This document shows positions 8,675 through 40,009 of a stretch of DNA of 42,010 bases, piece by piece. The position numbers and the translations under genes are program-made. Under the pieces are notes generated by a model that saw nothing but the letters and a program-made list of their open reading frames with translations, made no database searches and was not told the DNA's origin. Origin of the DNA: a virus; IMG/VR virus record IMGVR_UViG_3300028800_000026, positions 1 through 42,010 of that record, one strand, 5' to 3'. How positions within the stretch are numbered: position 1 is the first letter of the stretch; the number at the start of each line of letters is the position of its first letter.

Positions 8675-9154
8675 ATGAAGACACGATTATATTGCAAGCT
8701 TTGTAAAGACACCATTGAGCCACAACGACATAGAAATATCGTTTACTGCAAGTGCGGAAAGCTGGGCGCAGATGTGATAGGGGCGGGACAAATGAGGGTA
8801 AGCTACGCTCAAAGAGAGGATTATTGCATGGTAGACGACGAGGGCAATGAGATCGTGATTAAGGAAGAGGAAAAGATCGTTCCGGTCAGCGTGGCCGTAG
8901 CGCCTTCCGATGCACCTGCTTTAGAAGATGCTCTCGTCCACTCGGAATTGATTCTTTCGCTTACACATCAGATCGAGGCTATGGAAAGTTTGTCTTCAGC
9001 TGGACGGTTTTCCCCGTGCACGAATGGAGATCTTTTGGCTCATCTGGTGTGGCTGGAGGCACTTCTGAAGGTTCAGGCGCGGCGTCTAAAATCTTTTGAA
9101 CCCCAGCTCGGGGCTTTGAACCAATGGCGGCAAACATTTCCCGATAAGCATTGA
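8675..9154 (+). CDS. zinc-ribbon protein (CKLC...CKCG) with helical C-terminal half
   Basis: The N-terminal pattern C-x2-C...HR..(V)YC.CG is seen in small phage proteins. The 3' 176 nt overlap the convergent ORF 8979-9488. Confidence 0.5.
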   Translation: MKTRLYCKLCKDTIEPQRHRNIVYCKCGKLGADVIGAGQMRVSYAQREDYCMVDDEGNEIVIKEEEKIVPVSVAVAPSDAPALEDALVHSELILSLTHQIEAMESLSSAGRFSPCTNGDLLAHLVWLEALLKVQARRLKSFEPQLGALNQWRQTFPDKH

Positions 9155-9488
9155 GCTTCGCGGTGTTCATATCCTCTAGTGGCGCGTGTTCGATGAACCC
9201 CCGATGTCGGCCGATGGTCTTTAGATAGAACAGAATTGCGGTTGGGTTTTTTGAATCCCGGAGATCGTCAAGGGCTCGCTCGTATTTGTCTAGGCGAACC
9301 TCGATTAGCTCCGCGCACACCTGCTTTAGTTCGGGGACTTTTTGTATTCTTTTGTGAAGAGACGGCCTTTGAACTCCCAGGATTTTTGCAGCGTCCGACT
9401 GATTCCCATCTGTCTTAATTAGAGCGGCTTTCGCTTGTTCATCGGTGAATTTACACACTCTTTTTTGCGATTGTCTTTTGTTAGCCAT
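8979..9488 (-). CDS. HTH DNA-binding protein, probable terminase small subunit
   Basis: Fis-type HTH (NQSDAAKILGVQRPSLHKRIQK) and an ILFYLKTIGRHRGF motif. Lies upstream of terL on the same strand, but is separated from it by the plus-strand ORF. Confidence 0.5.
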   Translation of the reverse strand: MANKRQSQKRVCKFTDEQAKAALIKTDGNQSDAAKILGVQRPSLHKRIQKVPELKQVCAELIEVRLDKYERALDDLRDSKNPTAILFYLKTIGRHRGFIEHAPLEDMNTAKLNAYREMFAAIGSKPRAGVQKILDAAPEPSEVPPATPDEPKDLHSCTGKTVQLKTNFP

Positions 9489-9583
9489 GAGTTACGCATT
9501 ATCACAGAGTTAGATTAAAGTAAAGATTGGGAATTGTTTTTGTTTGGGAATTATGTATAATGGTTGGAAACCTGGAGGGTTTT

Positions 9584-9853
9584 ATGAAAACACATTATAG
9601 AGGCATTGCTGAGTGCTGGGATATATCGGGCCTCATCACCGGCTCCTCCGATCCTTTGGTGGAGTATAATAAATATAGAGAGGTTTTTCCTGCGGGATGG
9701 GAATGTGATGAGCTTTCTAATGATGATTCCGAATTCACTTTGGAAGATTTCCAAAATTATATTTATGAATTGCACGACAATGCCCTTACAGAAGCAGAAG
9801 ATTTTAGGGTTGAAGAACATAATAAAGGAGAGTGGGCGAAGCCAAAGATGTAA
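9584..9853 (+). CDS. hypothetical acidic protein (89 aa)
   Basis: GGAGG lies 5 nt upstream of ATG 9584. Confidence 0.55.
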   Translation: MKTHYRGIAECWDISGLITGSSDPLVEYNKYREVFPAGWECDELSNDDSEFTLEDFQNYIYELHDNALTEAEDFRVEEHNKGEWAKPKM

Positions 9854-10005
9854 ATGTTTTCCTTAAAGTGCCGAGATAGTAAACAGGTTTGCATGGTATG
9901 TACAATAAATGGTGAGTTATGTATTAAAGAAATAAGTGTCGGGAAATTAACTAGACTTGCCTGACCACCTGCCTCATATCAGGTTTTTCATACTGGTCTG
10001 GATGC

Positions 10006-10031
10006 GTCTCTCGTGATTGAGAGGCTTTTTT
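10006..10031 (+). terminator. intrinsic terminator-like hairpin plus T-run
   Basis: GTCTCTC-gtgatt-GAGAGGC (7 bp including one G.U pair) followed by TTTTTT. Confidence 0.5.
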
Positions 10032-10284
10032 ATTTCATCTTCTTCTTGCACTTAGCGATCAGCGGATCTCTCACTCTTTCGTCGTAATCGGCGAGTCTAG
10101 CGTTGCTCTTTTCGGCCTTTTTCACGAGCTTCTCTGCCTTTTTCAGTGGAACGCCCACTTCCTTCCTCATCTTCTTATCCATTCCTGTCTTCCTGTAGAG
10201 TTCAACGAAAGCTTGCTCGAGGTGAGATATTCTATTTAACATCTCGTGGATCTTCGTCGTAATCCATCGCTCGGAATCGCTCAT
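10030..10284 (-). CDS. small lysine-rich protein (84 aa)
   Basis: ORF with ATGA-type coupling to the upstream gene. Confidence 0.55.
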   Translation of the reverse strand: MSDSERWITTKIHEMLNRISHLEQAFVELYRKTGMDKKMRKEVGVPLKKAEKLVKKAEKSNARLADYDERVRDPLIAKCKKKMK

Positions 10285-10586
10285 TTTTTTTTGCCCTTTC
10301 TAGATTCGCTAAGGGCGATTGCAATTGCTTGTTTCGGATTGCTTACTTCTGGACCTTTTTTGGAACCCGAGTGAAGTTTTCCTTCCTTGAACTCTCTCAT
10401 TACCCTGTGAACTTTCTTTTGGGATTTATTTTCTTTTTTCATTTTTTTCTCTAATTTTGAAATTCGAGTGAGGAGTTTCATTAATTCCCAGACAATCCTT
10501 TGGAATTTTTGTGGGAAAGTGGCCGCAGATTTTTTAGGTCCGAATCCCTTCAACACACTTCGAAGGTGATTATAGGCGCTACTCAT
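10281..10586 (-). CDS. small basic protein with a C-terminal MxEFKxGxLxSG...KQAIAIALSE motif
   Basis: VMREFKEGKLHSGSKKGPEVSNPKQAIAIALSESRK matches a widespread small bacterial protein motif. I do not assert the family accession. Confidence 0.6.
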   Translation of the reverse strand: MSSAYNHLRSVLKGFGPKKSAATFPQKFQRIVWELMKLLTRISKLEKKMKKENKSQKKVHRVMREFKEGKLHSGSKKGPEVSNPKQAIAIALSESRKGKKK

Positions 10587-10771
10587 TTCTTATGAAATCC
10601 CTTCAGGGTCTTTGCAAGGCTTGCGCGCTTTCTTTCAAGAGGATTCTTGGAATGCTCGGCTTCTTCTAACTTCTTGGCCGGGATTTTCTTCCCTGCTTTG
10701 ACGCCAAGTTCTTTGTGGAGAGCTCCAGGGTGCTTTATGGAGCCAGAGATCCATTTCTTTTTCTCACCCAT
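10583..10771 (-). CDS. small basic protein (WI..SIKHPGALHKELGV...KRASLAKTL motif)
   Basis: The motif resembles a conserved small-protein family from bacteria and phages. The family name is not recalled. Confidence 0.55.
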   Translation of the reverse strand: MGEKKKWISGSIKHPGALHKELGVKAGKKIPAKKLEEAEHSKNPLERKRASLAKTLKGFHKK

Positions 10772-34433: not shown

Positions 34434-35066
34434 ATGGAAGAAAGAGCCGAAGATATTAAGTACTTTTTAGATTATTTTGGTGGAATAGATAATCTTAAAT
34501 TGCTTCTAAATGAAGAGTTTTTTTTAAAAAATGATAAAATATATTCCAGATTAAAAGGAATTTTAATAGATTATTTTTTGAACAATAAAAATTGTGCGCA
34601 AATCGGAGAAGATCAGGAGGTAACCTCTAGCAGAATTAACCATCTCTTGAAAAAAGGACTGCGAGGCTTAAAGTCAATTTATGAAAAAGAAAAAGCCAAA
34701 AAAGAGATACTAGAACGGGGAATTCCTGATTTAAGCATACGAGAAATGAATCTCAGCTACTATACTGAAAATATATTGATTCGCTCTGGTTGCACGAATT
34801 TAAAGGATGTTTTGACTCTCACTCAAAAGAATTTTTTAAAAATTAGCGACTCCGGGAGACGGAATCTCCGAGAACTTCAGGAATGGCTAGACTCAAATGG
34901 ACTAGAAACACTTAAAGTTGGCAATGCTGACCCTAAGATTCGTAATTCAAAAAAAGACATGTGTAATTATATTATAAATATGTGCTCTGGAAAGACCTTC
35001 ACAAATGAAGAAGTTGATAAAATAGTTTGTTTTTTAAAATCTAGAGTAAAAACAGGGGACAACTAG
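34434..35066 (+). CDS. sigma region-4-like HTH fused to an RNA polymerase alpha C-terminal-domain-like (HhH) module
   Basis: ILIDYFLNNKNCAQIGEDQEVTSSRINHLLKKGLRGLK resembles sigma70 region 4.2. MNLSYYTENILIRSGCTNLKDVLTLTQKNFLKISDSGRRNLRELQEWLDSNGLE aligns by eye with E. coli RpoA [53 protein letters not shown]. Confidence 0.6.
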   Translation: MEERAEDIKYFLDYFGGIDNLKLLLNEEFFLKNDKIYSRLKGILIDYFLNNKNCAQIGEDQEVTSSRINHLLKKGLRGLKSIYEKEKAKKEILERGIPDLSIREMNLSYYTENILIRSGCTNLKDVLTLTQKNFLKISDSGRRNLRELQEWLDSNGLETLKVGNADPKIRNSKKDMCNYIINMCSGKTFTNEEVDKIVCFLKSRVKTGDN

Positions 35067-35153: not shown

Positions 35154-36293
35154 TTATGGAGAGCTAATATCATCGATAAAAGCTTCCCAGTATACAACGT
35201 CACTTGTACTTCCTGACAGATGTGAAGAAGTATCAGCAGAGGCTTGAAATACGGCATTACCCGACCCAATTATAAAACCCTGCCGTGTGTTATTAACGAA
35301 TGCACCTTGGATCGCAGGTCCATTAATCGTACTTACACCAGCCGAAAAGGTTGGGAAGACAGGACTTGGATACAATGCGCCACCGCTATACTGCACGCCG
35401 CCACTATTGATATCGCCTACGGCTAAAACTTGCGGGAACGAAAGCCCAGGAACACTAGCCACTGTTTGGTTAGTATTAAAGGCAGTCGCTGCGCTAGAAT
35501 TAGCGCTGCAAACGAATTGTGTATTGCTAGAGACCGAAGTCACATAGTAATAAACAGGCGAACCGGGAATTGAGTTGTTTGGAAGAGAATTGAGCTGAGT
35601 TGTCCCCCATGCGGCAGGAATTCTAAACGCAATCTCTTGACCTACAACAAAATTGTGATTCGTAGTAGTCGTTACAGTCGTTGTACTTCCAGTGGAAATA
35701 GCTTCAATGAAGTTTAGTCCTGGAAGATACAAAAAGGGGTAAAGCACTTTTTTAACGAATGCTCCCGCAGGAGAACCAGTTAAAGCAGTGTAATTGCTTC
35801 CACCGCCGGGCCATACGACCGAGAAGTGATCCGCATCCCCAACCGCACTAATGCGGAATGGCATACCAGAAATTTGAGGCATCCCAGTCGTCGCCGATTG
35901 GTATAATCCCTCAAACATCACTACATCCCCAACAGAATACCCGTGGGCAGTCACGTTAAAGACGATAGGATTGGCAGCGGTAGCACCGATGATCTGTTGC
36001 TGCGCACCAAATTGGAACATCAGCCCAGCACCAAACGTGCTAATACCATTGGAAGTAACAACAGCTGTAGTTAATACAGGTGTTCCGCCATTACAATAAT
36101 TGCAAATTGCAAATCCTTGCCCCATCGATACATCCCAGCTTGCGCTAGGGATCAAATGCTGGGTAAATGCCGCCGATGCGGTATAGTTATATAACTTCAC
36201 TCGAGTGGGTTGGAACGGCAGATAAATCGGCACGTTGTTCCCAGTAGCTGCAAGAGTATAGTTACCTTTCGCTGATCTTGAATATTCGCTCAT
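35154..36293 (-). CDS. virion protein with two beta-module copies, directly downstream of the capsid gene (decoration/head-fibre role suspected)
   Basis: Start at ATG 36293 (GGGAGG upstream, just after the MCP TAA). Module copies are ...ATAANPIVFNVTAHGYSVGDVVMFEGL... and ...STGSTTTVTTTTNHNFVVGQEIAFRIPAAWGTTQLN... Confidence 0.65.
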   Translation of the reverse strand: MSEYSRSAKGNYTLAATGNNVPIYLPFQPTRVKLYNYTASAAFTQHLIPSASWDVSMGQGFAICNYCNGGTPVLTTAVVTSNGISTFGAGLMFQFGAQQQIIGATAANPIVFNVTAHGYSVGDVVMFEGLYQSATTGMPQISGMPFRISAVGDADHFSVVWPGGGSNYTALTGSPAGAFVKKVLYPFLYLPGLNFIEAISTGSTTTVTTTTNHNFVVGQEIAFRIPAAWGTTQLNSLPNNSIPGSPVYYYVTSVSSNTQFVCSANSSAATAFNTNQTVASVPGLSFPQVLAVGDINSGGVQYSGGALYPSPVFPTFSAGVSTINGPAIQGAFVNNTRQGFIIGSGNAVFQASADTSSHLSGSTSDVVYWEAFIDDISSP

Positions 36294-36303
36294 GGTTCCT
36301 CCC

Positions 36304-36732
36304 TTATGCCGCAACAAAGTTACCGGCACGAGTCGAAAGCAAGTTTCGAATAGCCGTATCTTGAGTGAGCGCTTGGGCCTGTGCAAACTTCACAGCCAAG
36401 GTAGCATTTTGCGCAAGCATACCAGAATAATAAGGATCTCGATAAATTAGATTCATCGAATAGCCATCCTGGTTAATGTGCGTAATTGCTTGTTTTCCAA
36501 CAACCGTATTATAATAAACGTCTCTTCCGGAAGCCGATGACAATCTTGACACTGGCGCTTCAGAGCTCGTTAAAATACGGACGTTGTATACCGCGCCGTA
36601 CTCCGTTGGGAGTGCGTCGGTGTTGTGGCCATAATTCCATGTGGAAAGAAAGCCGCTACCTGTAAGCGAGTCGAAGTCAGGCTGAAGCTCAGTTGAACTC
36701 AGCATGAAATACGCCGAACGAACAGGACCTGT
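36304..36732 (-). CDS. MCP exon 4 (142 aa plus stop)
   Basis: TGPVRSAYFMLSSTELQPDFDSL...TEYGAVYNVRILTSSEAP...RDVYYNTVVGKQAITHI...LAVKFAQAQALTQDTAIRNLLSTRAGNFVAA. Confidence 0.85.
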   Translation of the reverse strand, partial: TGPVRSAYFMLSSTELQPDFDSLTGSGFLSTWNYGHNTDALPTEYGAVYNVRILTSSEAPVSRLSSASGRDVYYNTVVGKQAITHINQDGYSMNLIYRDPYYSGMLAQNATLAVKFAQAQALTQDTAIRNLLSTRAGNFVAA

Positions 36733-38820
36733 CAAATTCTATTACTTTTGTGACCTAGACTACAAACGTCTGGGCGGGGAAACCTCTTCGGATCTCCCTC
36801 TCATAGTTACCTATGAGTTTAGACTATCGCATCTCCGTTGCCATTCATCAAAATTAAGTGACGAATTAGCCCCATATTCTGGGATTGGAGTCTCAGGATT
36901 TAGTCGTTCAGGCTGATCTGTTTGTAAAAACGACATATCAAGTCCCTTCAGCCAACAACCACATTGCATGCAGTTTCCACCACATTTATAACAAATGCCG
37001 TCTGGCCCAGCTACTTCCATTATGTAATTCTTATCACACATCTCTTGCCCCTTGTTATCCTTCAGCCTATGCTGCAAGGAACTTCAAGTCAATTACCCAA
37101 GATTTTACTTCGGCACAAAGTTTACCGAATTTCAAACTACCTTCAATACCAGAAACGAATTTCTGAGCATTATTTGTATCAAGAGTTGCAGCCACAAGGC
37201 TAAAATCTGAGACGCCCAAATTTGTTGGGTTGTCTCCGTTTCCGCCACCGCCTGCATTGATTTCGGACGCTGCCGATACAATGTAGTCGCGGAGGATCAA
37301 ATCCTCTGCTTGGCGCATGGCTACAGCAAGACGCTCTGACACCCAGGCCAAAACACCTTCCTGATCTTGACATCATTGTTACTTAATGACTTAAGTCACT
37401 AGGTCTGGTCATTTCTGCCAGACTCTGCAATTTCATTTTATAGTTGCAGATCGGACTGTCGCATCACCTTTCGGCGTCCACTCACTCAGTCTCTCACGGT
37501 GACTTTCGTCTTCCGCCTTGTCACCCCATCGGGCTTCCAAGTCAATCAGAGCGGATTTTTAGCATTCAGTATAGCTGTAATATGCAGGATATGCTACAAT
37601 CCTTCACAAACATTCAACATAGGATTCATATGCATGATTTTTACGGAAAGGAGCTTTCTCAATATGAGGTTGGCTATCTTGCCGGGATTATGGACGGAGA
37701 AGGAACTATTCATATCTCCAGACCTATTTCTAGGGCTAAAGACTGTAAAAGTCCGATTTACCAAACTTATATAGCAGTCACCAATACTGACCAAGGCCTT
37801 CTTAATTGGCTTCAAGAAAGAATAGGAGGTATTATTCGATCCATCCCTATAGATAAAAAATCTGGAGTGGTTCGACGTCCCATTTGGAGATGGTATTGTC
37901 CTATTTGTCGTATCAAGAGTTTTTGCGAACTGCTTATTCCATATTCCGTTGTAAAAAGACGAGAGTTTGAGATTATGTATGAGATCAGAGGAACCTATCG
38001 CAATCAAGCAAAACCTGGAAAGCAAGGTGTCCAAAAAGTTCCTGATGAGGATATTTCTATTCGACATCGCTGTTACCTTGAACTTAAAGATCTTCATATA
38101 AGGCCAAATCTTCGTCATCCTAATCTACTACCTAAACGCGGTGAACCCACAAAATCCTAGGATCACCTGCTCGTTGATTCATTTTACGAGCACTTTATGC
38201 TGCACAATCTAAAATGCAGCCGGTTCCAAAAAACGCCATTTGCGCATCAATGATGTCGCGTTGTGGCACCTGTGCAGGAGGGTCAATCCCGCTATTTCCC
38301 AACTGTCTATCTGTTAACTACTTACGTTTAAGTAAGCCGAAAGCCTATTGCACTTTCGTCATTCAGTTTCCTGAATGTTCAGAGCACCGCATCTCTGATT
38401 TCCAGAGGCCAAAATCACATTTGCCTCCATATTCAGAGTCTTCTCGCTTGCTACGTTCAGGCTGACCATAGATTTCTAAAATTCTACCATTTTCATTCAT
38501 AATCCTTCTGGGAACTTCCAGGAGTATTTTTCTGAAATTATCTATTATTTTATCATCCACAGGCTTGCCCCTTCTTATCACCGTCTTTACGCTGCGACTT
38601 TGAAGTCTATCAGAGAAGATTTTACAACCACACATTTTATGGTTGGAGGAGTTAACGCCCTTGGACGCATAAAGCGGCAAGTCGTTCCCCCGTTCACTGG
38701 CATCGACACTTTGTCGCACACCAAAATATAGTTCATTGTGGGAGTCGGGGTATAAAGCATCGCAGGCGCGAGCGACTGCAATATCATTGGACCAAGGTTC
38801 CCAGTAGTAGTAATAGACAT
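36304..38820 (-). CDS. major capsid protein (HK97 fold), split gene: 4 exons and 3 group I introns. Spliced CDS is 954 nt = 317 aa.
   Basis: Exon translations match, in order, the pattern I recall for a common HK97-type capsid family (N4-gp56-type, assignment unverified): LL..A.P.LV...IP.N.GKTV.FRRY / L.EG.TP...V.A.V.QYG / D.VL.E...LLG.QA..TLD.I.RD...NA.KF...KFGT.P..AY / GE.G.LYGVRF..T.EA...DVY...V.G..A.G / ...AKIL. Confidence 0.85.
36733..37123 (-). mobile_element. group I intron C (391 nt)
   Basis: P1: exon TTCGGT (37124-37129) pairs with GCCGAA (37109-37114), with a U.G pair at the splice site. The last base is G (36733). GTAA-capped 7-bp hairpin at 36800-36817. The joined exons read ...SLKFG|TGPVRSAYF in frame. 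Confidence 0.8.
37124..37373 (-). CDS. MCP exon 3 (1 nt plus 83 codons)
   Basis: (I)CQDQEGVLAWVSERLAVAMRQAEDLILRDYI...TLDTNNAQKFVSGIEGSLKFG. The 5' boundary could instead be 37370. Confidence 0.8.
37374..38213 (-). mobile_element. group I intron B (840 nt) carrying an antisense LAGLIDADG gene
   Basis: P1: exon GCTGCAT (38214-38220) pairs with GTGCAGC (38199-38205), with a U.G pair at the splice site. The 3' end ...AAGTAACAATG resembles the ends of introns A and C. Homologous 7-bp hairpin at 37424-37450. Confidence 0.7.
37630..38160 (+). CDS. LAGLIDADG homing endonuclease, single-motif (homodimer-type), encoded antisense to its host intron
   Basis: YLAGIMDGEGTIHI lies about 15 aa after ATG 37630. 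About 176 aa, with no second LAGLIDADG motif. The track ORF extends to 37444; alternative ATG starts are at 37582 and 37591. Confidence 0.75.
   Translation: MHDFYGKELSQYEVGYLAGIMDGEGTIHISRPISRAKDCKSPIYQTYIAVTNTDQGLLNWLQERIGGIIRSIPIDKKSGVVRRPIWRWYCPICRIKSFCELLIPYSVVKRREFEIMYEIRGTYRNQAKPGKQGVQKVPDEDISIRHRCYLELKDLHIRPNLRHPNLLPKRGEPTKS
38214..38306 (-). CDS. MCP exon 2 (93-nt mini-exon: 1 nt + 30 codons + 2 nt)
   Basis: (I)QLGNSGIDPPAQVPQRDIIDAQMAFFGTGC(I) supplies the otherwise missing E-loop tip and return strand (compare L.EG.TP......V.A.V.QYG). It has no start codon, so it is absent from the ORF track. Confidence 0.7.
38307..38638 (-). mobile_element. group I intron A (332 nt)
   Basis: P1: exon CAACCAT (38639-38645) pairs with GTGGTTG (38625-38631), with a U.G pair at the splice site. 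GTAAAATCTT immediately follows, as in intron C. GAAA-capped 7-bp hairpin at 38360-38377. The last base is G (38307). Confidence 0.75.
38639..38820 (-). CDS. MCP exon 1 (60 codons + 2 nt)
   Basis: MSITTTGNLGPMILQSLAPAMLYTPTPTMNYILVCDKVSMPVNGGTTCRFMRPRALTPPT. AAAGGA lies 8 nt upstream of the ATG. Confidence 0.85.
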
Positions 38821-38923
38821 TTTTTTAATCCTTTTGTCTACGTTCCCAATCTAGTTTTGACCTCAGCGAAAGGACTATTACGCCTAATGGAATCAAGATG
38901 GCCGTCTCGAGACCATGTTTAGT

Positions 38924-38985
38924 CGGTACATAAGGGGTTAGCTCCGTACATATAGCTACTATGTACTAACCTACTCCGTACATAA
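38924..38985. promoter_or_regulatory. cluster of GTACATA repeats upstream of the capsid gene
   Basis: CGGTACATAA 38924-38933, CCGTACATAT 38944-38953 and CCGTACATAA 38976-38985, plus an inverted TATGTAC at 38959-38965. Confidence 0.5.
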
Positions 38986-39108
38986 GACCACCTTTGCGAA
39001 GGGGATTACGCGAAACTCATTAACGGCGAGCTACCGAAAACTTCTGATTAACAAATTGATTAAAAATTGGCAAGTGGCGAAAGTGCGATACGAATTCGAC
39101 ACATCTTT

Positions 39109-39480
39109 TTATTGCTTCGAATTCGAGTCGAATCTGTTCCAGGGAGAATGGCCCTCTAGACGTAACTTGTGAGCCATGCGGATATTGTTTGCAATCCACC
39201 CGTCGAACGTAGGGCCTAAGTAATCTTTCATGGATAAATTAGGATGATCACTTAAGAATTGATCGCAGAACTTACAGAAATTGAAGCTTTGGTCTCCGTC
39301 GAATCTAGAACGTCCCCCATTTGCATCTTCTTCACACTTGGCGCATCTCATATTCATAGAATCAATCGTGTTGGTTTTTATCGTATGGAATAATTTCTCA
39401 CAGCAACAGTTGATGCAATAGTAGTAACCATCGTAGATTTCACTTTCCAAGACATCTTCGCTACATTCCCAGCATTTCAT
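39109..39480 (-). CDS. cysteine-rich multi-zinc-finger-like protein (123 aa)
   Basis: CWEC...CINCCC...CAKC...CKFC. Confidence 0.55.
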   Translation of the reverse strand: MKCWECSEDVLESEIYDGYYYCINCCCEKLFHTIKTNTIDSMNMRCAKCEEDANGGRSRFDGDQSFNFCKFCDQFLSDHPNLSMKDYLGPTFDGWIANNIRMAHKLRLEGHSPWNRFDSNSKQ

Positions 39481-39499
39481 GTTATGATAACTCTACTTA

Positions 39500-39682
39500 T
39501 CATACTAATTCCCAGACAACTTTTACTTGTTTGGCGATATACTTATCATTGCCGTGAAGCCACAGAGTACCTTTTTCATAAACATCCTCTTCGCACGGCG
39601 CCCGAGAAGAAATAACGAGAGGACTGTTTCTTATTTCCTCTCTTATAACGCTTCTAACTATTTCCTTAATCCAATTTCTCAT
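39500..39682 (-). CDS. hypothetical protein (60 aa)
   Basis: ORF only. Confidence 0.4.
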   Translation of the reverse strand: MRNWIKEIVRSVIREEIRNSPLVISSRAPCEEDVYEKGTLWLHGNDKYIAKQVKVVWELV

Positions 39683-39814
39683 TTTTTTCTGTCAACTCCT
39701 CGTGTTTTAGAATCGGCAAAACTCATACAGTTTTTGGCGCCCAAAGTTTCATCTTCTCAAAAAAATATAAATCTGACAACGTGAAACGCGGGGCAATCAA
39801 AATAGGAGTCAAAG

Positions 39815-40009
39815 ATGGCTGTCATATATATAGCGCTCAAAAATGCGAGGGAACAAATGTCTGGCAAGATTTCACGAGACTTAGCTGCCAGGTTTGTTCT
39901 CAATCCCATAGATTTATCTATTTTGATGGATGAGGGTTGGGAATGTTTCGAAATCGGAGATCTCAAGCAAATCGAAAAAGTAGAAACAACCGTACTGGAA
40001 AGAAACTAA
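39815..40009 (+). CDS. hypothetical protein (64 aa)
   Basis: AGGAG upstream of the ATG. Confidence 0.5.
   Translation: MAVIYIALKNAREQMSGKISRDLAARFVLNPIDLSILMDEGWECFEIGDLKQIEKVETTVLERN

Follow-up and report, generated by a model that had tools for sequence, protein, structure and literature searches.

A reversed LAGLIDADG endonuclease gene in a probable group I intron of a phage major capsid gene, with a candidate core-less mini-intron beside it

The DNA analysed here is a stretch of 42,010 nucleotides (nt) from IMG/VR virus record IMGVR_UViG_3300028800_000026 (positions 1 to 42,010; the window), and the element of interest is an open reading frame (ORF) for a LAGLIDADG homing endonuclease that lies on the plus strand, within and opposite to what is very probably an intron of the major capsid gene. 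At ~42 kb, the window represents a phage genome that is nearly complete (an identical ORF product is found on a 42,024-bp contig), and the host genome is that of a tailed phage of this size: the minus strand carries the portal, large terminase, tail, and capsid genes, and the plus strand carries a helicase block and a few other genes. The interrupted gene runs on the minus strand from 38820 down to 36304 and encodes a major capsid protein of the N4-gp56 family (a name taken from one database source). An earlier reading of the letters alone (the first-pass annotation) had assigned both the capsid gene and its intron to the minus strand, which agrees with the present analysis, as all four capsid segments, placed by tblastn with an intron-less homologue as the query, are on that strand and can be spliced in frame.

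The exon/intron map was derived from junction-by-junction comparison with intron-less homologues; at least 240 related capsid loci are present in IMG/VR, the majority of them uninterrupted. Removal of four intervening sequences (intron C, mini-intron B1, intron B2, and intron A; Table 1) results in a capsid product of 323 amino acids (aa), the same length as the proteins of the intron-less loci L004 and L007. The spliced product reads ...AFFGTGCIINEQVILQDQEGVLAWV... and is identical there to both of them. It is colinear with hundreds of intron-less N4-gp56-family proteins, the best of 999 strong database matches being 91% identical, and a phage GenBank collection yielded a single distant capsid match only. 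The interval had first been delimited as one intron at 37374-38213. These limits were nearly right (37371-38213 on the present map), but the interval is composed of B1, a microexon, and B2 rather than a single intron. It had also been described as about 500 nt longer than introns A and C, which by measurement are ~400-450 nt shorter than B2; this size excess is consistent with the ORF being the extra sequence. Introns A and C, likewise on the minus strand, belong to the same broad type of group I intron and contain inserts of 100-150 nt.

The features expected of a group I intron were found for B2 on the minus strand. The internal guide sequence GGGUUCACC begins 10 nt into the intron and pairs with the end of the microexon to form P1, whereas P10 joins a second part of the guide, GAUUUUG (38156-38150), to CAAGAUC in exon 3 (37369-37363). 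P1 is preserved by compensatory changes at locus L084 (GUCAUAUU with GGUAUGAC), it is recovered by minimum-free-energy (MFE) folding, and the intron ends in G at 13 of 13 loci (nine distinct sequences). All nine pairs of helix P2 form in eight of nine homologues, and eight of them form in the window, with several compensated variants being present. Because P2 joins the segment after the guide to the segment before P3, the ORF and its upstream region are located in loop L2. In the catalytic core, P7 (37491-37487 with 37458-37454) and the 3' strand of P3 (37483-37478) make up the P3/P7 pseudoknot. This core type is common to L081, L084, L087, L255, and the ORF-less L230, in which P1 is followed directly by UAAAAU and P3. 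Across the alignment, 97.9% of the cells are paired and 10 of 41 pairs have changed on both sides, compared with 30-45% pairing in controls slid by 1-3 columns. In the comparison of intron alleles with and without the ORF that had been recommended, ORF-bearing relatives were found at the same site, and the ORF-less intron of the same core type (L230) at a site 7 nt upstream.

Rfam searches of the window detected no group I intron on either strand (gathering threshold, and E up to 10 for 35500-40000). Rfam was equally blank for 20 metagenomic loci that contain antisense ORFs, and 16 sequences were therefore used to build a covariance model of the 3' half of the core. With this model, B2 was recovered in the window, as were intron A (E 0.003) and intron C (E 0.047), each of them on the minus strand; model R1 gave B2 97 bits on the minus strand, with the B2 sequence itself among those used to build it. 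ORF homologues (66-86% identical) occupy the same capsid site in several contigs from ENA, JGI, and Logan and in four IMG/VR loci, in every case running opposite to the capsid gene, and all close homologues with a readable context lie between minus-strand capsid fragments. Moreover, at five loci with the same site and a homologous ORF (L082, L085, L088, L089, and L091), a second core type with textbook R and S elements was found, which matches RF00028 (72-85 bits, E 1e-16 to 1e-20) on the strand opposite to the ORF.

The intron, or another host element, might instead lie on the plus strand, or the ORF might stand free between separate genes for capsid fragments with nothing being spliced. The blank Rfam result for both strands of the window could be read in this way, as could a free-standing relative of the ORF in another phage (P0018) and sense-oriented relatives at three loci and, at a neighbouring site, at L161, L220, and L223. 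Such an arrangement is nevertheless extremely improbable, as the four minus-strand capsid pieces join in frame, after a U at the 5' and a G at the 3' intron ends, into a colinear 323-aa protein, the pairings of P1, P10, P2, and the core and their compensatory changes are all on the minus strand, and the RF00028 matches of the orthologues are on that strand as well. Intron-like features on the plus strand, which the first-pass annotation had named as an outcome that would reverse its orientation, were also looked for near the ORF with both Rfam and the 3'-core model, and none were found. Thus, the region very probably represents a mobile minus-strand group I intron (B2) in the major capsid gene, with a reversed endonuclease gene in L2. 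Weighing on the other side are the lack of an Rfam match in the window, the thin basis of the window-type core (six sequences, from which the structure was itself derived), and the fact that no identical spliced capsid protein was present among 5.8 billion protein clusters.

Table 1. Coordinates of the capsid gene segments, the predicted intron elements, and the endonuclease gene in the window
Feature	Coordinates	Strand	Length	Description
Exon 1	38820-38639	-	182 nt	
Intron C	38638-38307	-	332 nt	
Exon 2	38306-38214	-	93 nt	
Mini-intron B1	38213-38180	-	34 nt	UUUAGAUUGUGCAGCAUAAAGUGCUCGUAAAAUG; terminal G at 38180; no catalytic core
Microexon	38179-38159	-	21 nt	AAUCAACGAGCAGGUGAUCCU; third base of an Ile codon, INEQVI, first two bases of a Leu codon
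Intron B2 (probable group I)	38158-37371	-	788 nt	5' exon ends ...GGUGAUCCU; omega-G at 37371; ORF antisense in L2
Exon 3	37370-37124	-	247 nt	
Intron A	37123-36733	-	391 nt	
Exon 4	36732-36304	-	429 nt	
P1 of B2	38140-38167	-		Microexon GGUGAUCCU (38167-38159) with internal guide GGGUUCACC (38148-38140); U.G at the splice site
P2 of B2	37562-38139	-		GCGUUUAG (38139-38132) with CUGAAUGC (37569-37562)
Catalytic core of B2	37400-37554	-		P3 5' strand (37554-37549), P4-P6, P7, P3', P8, P9, P9.1
LAGLIDADG homing endonuclease gene	37630-38160	+	176 aa	ATG start; single motif YLAGIMDGEG
Candidate expression signals	37592-37624	+		Extended -10-like TGCTACAAT (37592-37600); Shine-Dalgarno AGGA (37621-37624), 5 nt before ATG
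Open frame in intron sense	37594-38118	-	174 codons	Exactly complementary to the LAGLIDADG codons

The plus-strand ORF was confirmed in the sequence as first described, with its extent, its length of about 176 aa, and its single LAGLIDADG motif unchanged. Its TAG stop codon straddles the 5' splice site of B2, the T being in the intron and the AG in the microexon. Against Pfam LAGLIDADG_1, the single ORF reached 16.7 bits (E 0.014), below the curated cut-off of 23.1, and profile and fold searches were therefore needed. Some ORF homologues carry a precomputed PF00961 match, and the single sequence matches PHROG 5046 (2e-15) and also I-MsoI in the PDB. A profile made from an alignment of 18 homologues matched I-MsoI (1e-7 for the natural chain and 1e-15 for the single-chain form), I-CreI (8e-5), I-CvuI, and I-Vdi141I in the PDB, with one matched stretch per protein, as well as 27,003 representatives of a 1.8-billion-protein library, including both one- and two-domain proteins. 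The AlphaFold model of the product (pLDDT, the predicted local distance difference test, 84; pTM, the predicted template-modelling score, 0.78) had I-CreI (1bp7_A) and I-MsoI as its best Foldseek matches (probability 1.0, template-modelling scores 0.62-0.71). The predicted structure is that of a single-domain LAGLIDADG core fold (alpha-beta-beta-alpha-beta-beta-alpha) of the ~150-180 aa class. The initial assignment to I-CreI-like enzymes is thus supported by the profile search as well as by the predicted fold.

Several lines of evidence indicate that this frame is maintained as a protein. The motif aspartate D22, which aligns with the motifs of I-MsoI and I-CreI, and the lysine K109, which aligns with the lysine-rich RIKKK stretch of I-MsoI, are invariant in the 18 aligned sequences, and K109 is inferred to be the conserved catalytic lysine. 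The ratio of nonsynonymous to synonymous substitution rates (dN/dS) against eight homologues is 0.07-0.18, with dS being saturated. The frame is open in all nine close homologues and has a ratio of nonsynonymous to synonymous polymorphism (pN/pS) of 0.23. Among the other five frames, pN/pS is 1.2-2.0 in four and 0.39 in the fifth, which has 8-11 stops per sequence. The LAGLIDADG frame is the only one of the six that combines the absence of stops with a low pN/pS, and it is not a chance ORF. As judged from the sequence comparisons, its predicted product is an intact LAGLIDADG enzyme of the I-CreI/I-MsoI homodimer type under purifying selection. I-CreI, I-MsoI, and I-CvuI, which are encoded in group I introns of green-algal chloroplast 23S ribosomal RNA (rRNA), resemble it in having one motif, ~160-175 aa, the same fold (by profile and predicted structure), and the conserved catalytic Asp and Lys. 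They differ in sequence (~17-22% identity), in that their genes are on the intron strand, and in their organelle rRNA hosts, whereas the phage ORF is reversed, overlaps the guide and the 5' splice site, and sits in a structural gene.

In the proposed mechanism of mobility, the homodimer would cut intron-less capsid alleles around ...GGTGATCCT^TCAAGATCAGG... (candidate intron-less target site for the 176-aa protein, GAGCAGGTGATCCTTCAAGATCAGGAAGG), repair of the double-strand break would copy the intron in together with flanking exon sequence, and the ribozyme would excise B2 from the capsid transcript. The features of a mobile intron that can be read from sequence are present, namely an ORF in L2, presence or absence at one site, and shared flanks. 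Eight of 13 intron-bearing loci (window included) share GTGATCCT^TCAAGATCA, and the 72 intron-less alleles contain 57 wobble variants of the site. Homodimers of the single-motif type cut pseudo-palindromic sites of ~22 bp and produce 3' overhangs of 4 nt. In the joined exons (AGGTGATCCTT followed by CAAGATCAGGA), TGATC...GATCA surrounds the insertion point, which lies in the central four bases, and 6 of 11 half-site positions are symmetric. Two of these observations speak against homing at this site: the symmetry is suggestive of a weak pseudo-palindrome only, and the joined sequence GTGATCCT^TCAAGATCA was found in no intron-less IMG/VR sequence. On the other hand, shared flanks together with a missing joined form would also fit homing with co-conversion, or saturation of the susceptible targets.

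It is also conceivable that the protein no longer takes part in homing and has been kept by selection as a maturase or as a domesticated DNA-binding protein. Strong purifying selection is compatible with any function, the exact joined-exon sequence is missing from intron-less alleles, and LAGLIDADG maturases are known, including one in a bacterial 23S intron (PMC3984707). This explanation is unlikely, as the motif Asp and the conserved Lys are invariant in all 18 sequences, different LAGLIDADG lineages and intron cores have been exchanged at this hot spot, and presence or absence at a single site, with flanks that are shared among intron-bearing but vary freely among intron-less alleles, is the pattern of homing.

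The reversed orientation has consequences for expression. The capsid pre-mRNA would never present the endonuclease ORF to ribosomes, and the gene would have a promoter of the extended -10 type to itself, on the strand shared with the replication genes (helicase and others), and would be translated from its own Shine-Dalgarno sequence. All nine close homologues have TGnTACAnT ~30 nt ahead of the ATG and, at a distance of 4-6 nt from it, TAGGAG, which is TAGGAT in the window; these upstream signals are kept across the two different intron core types. Its plus-strand location with the helicase block suggests an early or middle expression programme. There are also results unfavourable to an independent transcription unit. 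The proposed promoter was not listed by a generic sigma-70 scan, since it has no -35 element; the conserved upstream block sits in an inverted repeat, so that RNA structure could explain its conservation; and a terminator scan found none. The first-pass annotation had further predicted RNA antisense to the capsid transcript. This holds for the precursor and the excised intron but not for the mature capsid mRNA: the ORF is complementary only to the intron and 2 nt of exon, and therefore its mRNA could pair with the former two but not with the spliced message. The ORF shares its 3' end with P2, with the internal guide sequence, and with the 5' splice site, and this overlap means that the guide dictates the variable C-terminal tail of the protein.

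The strand opposite to the endonuclease codons is also free of stops. The 174-codon frame in the intron sense starts 6 nt after the double UAG that ends read-through from the microexon, and in each of the nine close homologues the complement of the LAGLIDADG frame can be read for 160 codons without meeting a stop. It is open because the first 160 codons of the endonuclease contain no TTA, CTA, or TCA. In the endonuclease gene, 10 of the 13 Leu codons are CTT, TTA and TCA are absent, and CTA occurs only twice, in the C-terminal tail, whereas in a set of 12 other window genes the three codons account for 35% of those for Leu and 16% of those for Ser. The chance of avoiding all three by codon usage alone is 6e-4, a figure that is idealised and calculated for the whole ORF despite the two CTA codons of the tail. 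Counts of these codons in 80 relatives are bimodal (none in 42, one or two in 11, and 3-13 in the rest), and three sense-oriented relatives belong to the normal group. The frame was rejected as a general continuation of the capsid frame, as it is in phase only in the window and L084, and as a selected protein, given a pN/pS of ~1.2 (a measure confounded by the overlap). The splicing of T4 introns depends on pre-mRNA translation and ribosome position (PMC3984707). It may be speculated that ribosome passage across the 600-nt loop is what has been selected for, perhaps because it protects the RNA from nucleases and Rho termination or keeps the antisense mRNA from pairing with it.

To examine how common the layout is, a metagenome scan was performed with the ORF alignment, which recovered 80 loci 26-86% identical to the query. 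The ORF is antisense inside a capsid homologue in 61 of the 80, including capsids that are 30-45% identical, and the insertions are mostly at residues ~88-105. A match to the core model was found opposite to the ORF in 58 of 75 loci, usually directly 5' of the ORF start as in the window, on the ORF's own strand just after the ORF in three (L287, L295, and L311), and in neither place in the remaining 14. Antisense genes of this kind had been called rare; the literature agrees, but within this capsid family the layout is the rule. From these sequence comparisons, the reversed orientation is old and common within a capsid gene that is an intron hot spot in which cores and ORFs are often exchanged. 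For example, several intron forms are found in related phages at the neighbouring insertion point 7 nt upstream, after ...GAGCAGGU. These comprise ORF-less introns (L216 and L230), introns whose antisense ORF is of another LAGLIDADG lineage and occupies a different loop, the one after P6 (L218, L219, and L226), and a different, sense-oriented LAGLIDADG ORF of ~180 aa that runs into P7-P9 (L161, 2635-3174; L220; and L223). Among the capsid homologues L073-L092, L216-L230, and L235-L312, up to five interruptions per gene were observed (L216), at residues ~22, 29, 31, 62, 81, 88, 93, 97, 100, 102, 120-122, 144, 163, and 181.

Published antisense endonuclease genes were found in nuclear ribosomal DNA (rDNA) introns with His-Cys box enzymes (PMC9548176). 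I-DirII (Didymium iridis S956-2) and I-DsqI (Diderma squamulosum L2066) likewise have the gene in a peripheral loop opposite to both ribozyme and host gene, and they are expressed from an internal promoter as a separate transcript (PMC9548176). They differ from the phage element in their His-Cys box enzymes, in the use of eukaryotic RNA polymerase II, polyadenylation, and spliceosomal introns, and in their rRNA hosts (PMC9548176); in addition, they are isolated cases, whereas the phage capsid layout dominates a large family. With a LAGLIDADG enzyme and a phage host, the element described here does not belong to their class and shares only the reversed orientation with it. The introns of T4 td (I-TevI), Bastille-like DNA polymerase genes, and Twort are similar in that an endonuclease gene lies in a loop, the host is a phage protein gene, a short in-frame stop follows the 5' splice site, and several introns may occur per gene (PMC2988022, PMC11878797, PMC3984707). 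However, their ORFs are on the intron strand and mostly belong to the GIY-YIG, HNH, or EDxHD families, and LAGLIDADG enzymes are uncommon in phage introns (PMC3984707). In the literature searched, which covered few subscription journals, no reversed ORF was found in phage or bacterial introns, and two papers on such introns mention none (PMC3984707, PMC11878797). What is new here is a reversed LAGLIDADG gene in a group I intron of a bacterial virus, situated in a capsid gene and overlapping the guide, and a large family of such elements that is unannotated.

Reversed endonuclease genes in group I introns were previously known only as curiosities of eukaryotic rDNA. In that setting, transcription of one strand can be kept spatially apart from that of the other, whereas in phages transcription and translation are coupled. 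The capsid introns therefore raise the questions of how a selfish gene is timed when an early-strand promoter is set against a late capsid transcript, how clashes between sense and antisense RNA are avoided, and how the ribozyme folds around a 600-nt loop. Moreover, capsid genes of this kind are fragmented by gene callers and their introns are missed by Rfam, and such genomes are mis-annotated as a result.

The second subject of the locus is mini-intron B1, which is separated from B2 by the microexon. In intron-less homologues, INEQVIL stands between GTGCI and QDQEG, and in the window these codons lie inside the supposed single intron B. The microexon is translated, since its variation across loci is almost only synonymous or at Ile/Val positions. 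A twintron composed of B1 and B2 was considered and rejected, as the 21-nt segment between them is coding, retained, and constrained at the protein level. B1 is delimited by pairings like those of a group I intron: a P1 between GCUGCAU in the exon (38220-38214) and the guide GUGCAGC (38205-38199), including a U.G pair; a P10 between the guide GAUU (38209-38206) and AAUC of the microexon (38179-38176); and a clamp helix, P-x, between UGCUCGU (38192-38186) and ACGAGCA of the microexon (38174-38168). The MFE fold of 38226-38122 consists of exactly three hairpins, P1 of B1, P-x, and P1 of B2 (z = -3.6).

Similar mini-introns were found in related phages. A second one at the B1 site (L276, 33 nt) has the same P1 and P10. 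Sister mini-introns of 28-68 nt are located four codons upstream, after FFG (directly after GGU), in most related loci, including capsids 42-46% identical. In 22 distinct copies from this FFG site, the three helices are 94.1% paired (22-50% in slid controls), two-sided changes affect 13 of 23 pairs (56 cells), all 22 have the U.G pair, and A-U, C-G, G-C, and U-A are all represented in the P10 column opposite to the wobble base of a Thr codon. A third type (L084 and L230/L274) is 47 nt long, lies 15 nt downstream of a full intron after GAGGGU, ends in G, and has a P1 of AAGAGGGU/GCCCUCUU and a P10 of GUAUUA/UAAUAC. Alleles without the FFG-site mini-intron (such as L087 and L310) have GGG, not GGU, at the site, and none of 72 intron-less capsid genes, taken from a score-ranked list, contains a mini-insertion of this kind. 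A 14-base pattern proved too unspecific to locate further copies (~120 matches, almost all by chance), but a gapped pattern worked. In this unbiased scan, a full intron followed at a distance of 26-33 nt downstream in each of the 11 capsid loci that have a mini-intron at the FFG site, and every mini-intron-bearing capsid locus recovered has a full intron somewhere in the gene.

As their lengths are not multiples of three and they contain stops, the mini-introns must be removed. The group I chemistry for splicing B1 may come from the core of a full intron nearby on its transcript, with B2 as the most likely source, and B1 would spread by co-conversion with that intron. The chances seem about even that 28-68-nt natural core-less introns are spliced by a neighbouring ribozyme and hitch-hike by co-conversion with its endonuclease; as a possible further layer, the reversed endonuclease gene would have been recoded without TTA, CTA, and TCA to let ribosomes traverse the intron-sense RNA. 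Some results are less favourable to this proposal: the dependence on a neighbouring core is read from co-occurrence; at L276, the nearest full intron is ~93 nt downstream; and in the FFG-site test the 5' strand of P-x was the 9-mer that paired best, a selection by which the values for this helix are inflated, whereas P1 and P10 were at fixed offsets.

Alternatively, B1 might not be an RNA intron, and might instead be bypassed by ribosome hopping of the T4 gene 60 type, or be removed by splicing from the 5' site of B1 to the 3' site of B2, giving a protein that lacks ~7 residues. B1 is far too short to be a ribozyme, hairpins flank the B1 gap, and exon skipping between tandem group I introns is reportedly known from Twort phage. 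These explanations were rejected on the basis of codon logic and covariation, and are quite unlikely. Bypass elements of the gene 60 type have take-off and landing codons that match, and a stop codon comes immediately behind the take-off codon. These codons mismatch in all three mini-intron types, with conserved residues being lost or the frame changed. Hopping would also have no use for features typical of group I introns, namely the U.G pair, the terminal G, and a P10 that follows the wobble base of the Thr codon through all four nucleotides. Finally, the microexon is constrained at the protein level and thus translated. Exon skipping between tandem group I introns, which is on record, also demonstrates that a core can act on the splice site of its neighbour (PMC10136302), as removal of B1 by a neighbouring core would require.

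No natural core-less or helper-dependent group I introns were described in the literature searched. The closest parallel is an engineered Tetrahymena 'spliceozyme', which works in E. coli and acts in trans: once guide pairing has aligned the splice sites, it uses group I chemistry to excise a core-less intron from a second RNA (PMC4094466). It is man-made and carries the guides on the ribozyme, whereas B1 appears to carry its own guides and its presumed ribozyme is a natural neighbour. Degenerate group I introns in the rDNA of lichen fungi are likewise not self-splicing and yet are removed in vivo (PMC8527467), but they are ~200-300 nt long, retain a core remnant, and are thought to need host machinery (PMC8527467), whereas the mini-introns are 28-68 nt long and have no core remnant. 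Regarding their origin, intron A, which is inserted between UUCGGU and ACAGG and begins ...UUUGUGCCGAAGUA, resembles the FFG-site mini-introns (...CCUGUGCCGAAGUAG), which hints that the latter could be internally deleted derivatives of intron-A-like introns. With its mini-intron, 21-nt microexon, and full intron all contained within 850 nt, the locus is a compact natural system in which to ask whether one ribozyme can serve a second, core-less intron. If the proposal is true, mini-introns would form a non-autonomous class of group I introns, much as miniature inverted-repeat transposable elements (MITEs) do among transposons.

Several further observations concern the introns and their surroundings. 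The P9.1 loop CAGAAAUGA (37414-37406 on the minus strand of the window) is invariant in both core types and in nearly all related introns, which suggests a tertiary contact, and no complementary partner for it was found. Strong 3'-core matches including this loop also occur several kb from the capsid gene (L007, 1579-1675, plus strand; L015, 689-785, plus strand; and a second site in L219), and therefore other genes of those phages also carry such introns. In the window, a weak 3'-core match (10223-10317, minus strand; 16 bits, E 0.048) overlaps a DUF6496 ORF (10281-10586, minus strand) and may be due to chance. Reversed-ORF introns in the terminase region (~8700-10600) were considered and rejected, the ORFs there being ordinary helix-turn-helix and DUF proteins. 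An 88-codon sense-strand ORF in intron A (36811-37077) has no family match and includes a Cys-rich stretch, CYKCGGNCMQCGCW. Finally, a 210-aa plus-strand ORF (34434-35066) is located among the minus-strand structural genes. Its match to the C-terminal domain of the RNA polymerase alpha subunit exceeds the cut-off (E 4e-6), and there is a weak one to sigma-70 region 4. This ORF may encode a phage transcription factor, and similar plus-strand ORFs are found near the capsid gene in related contigs.

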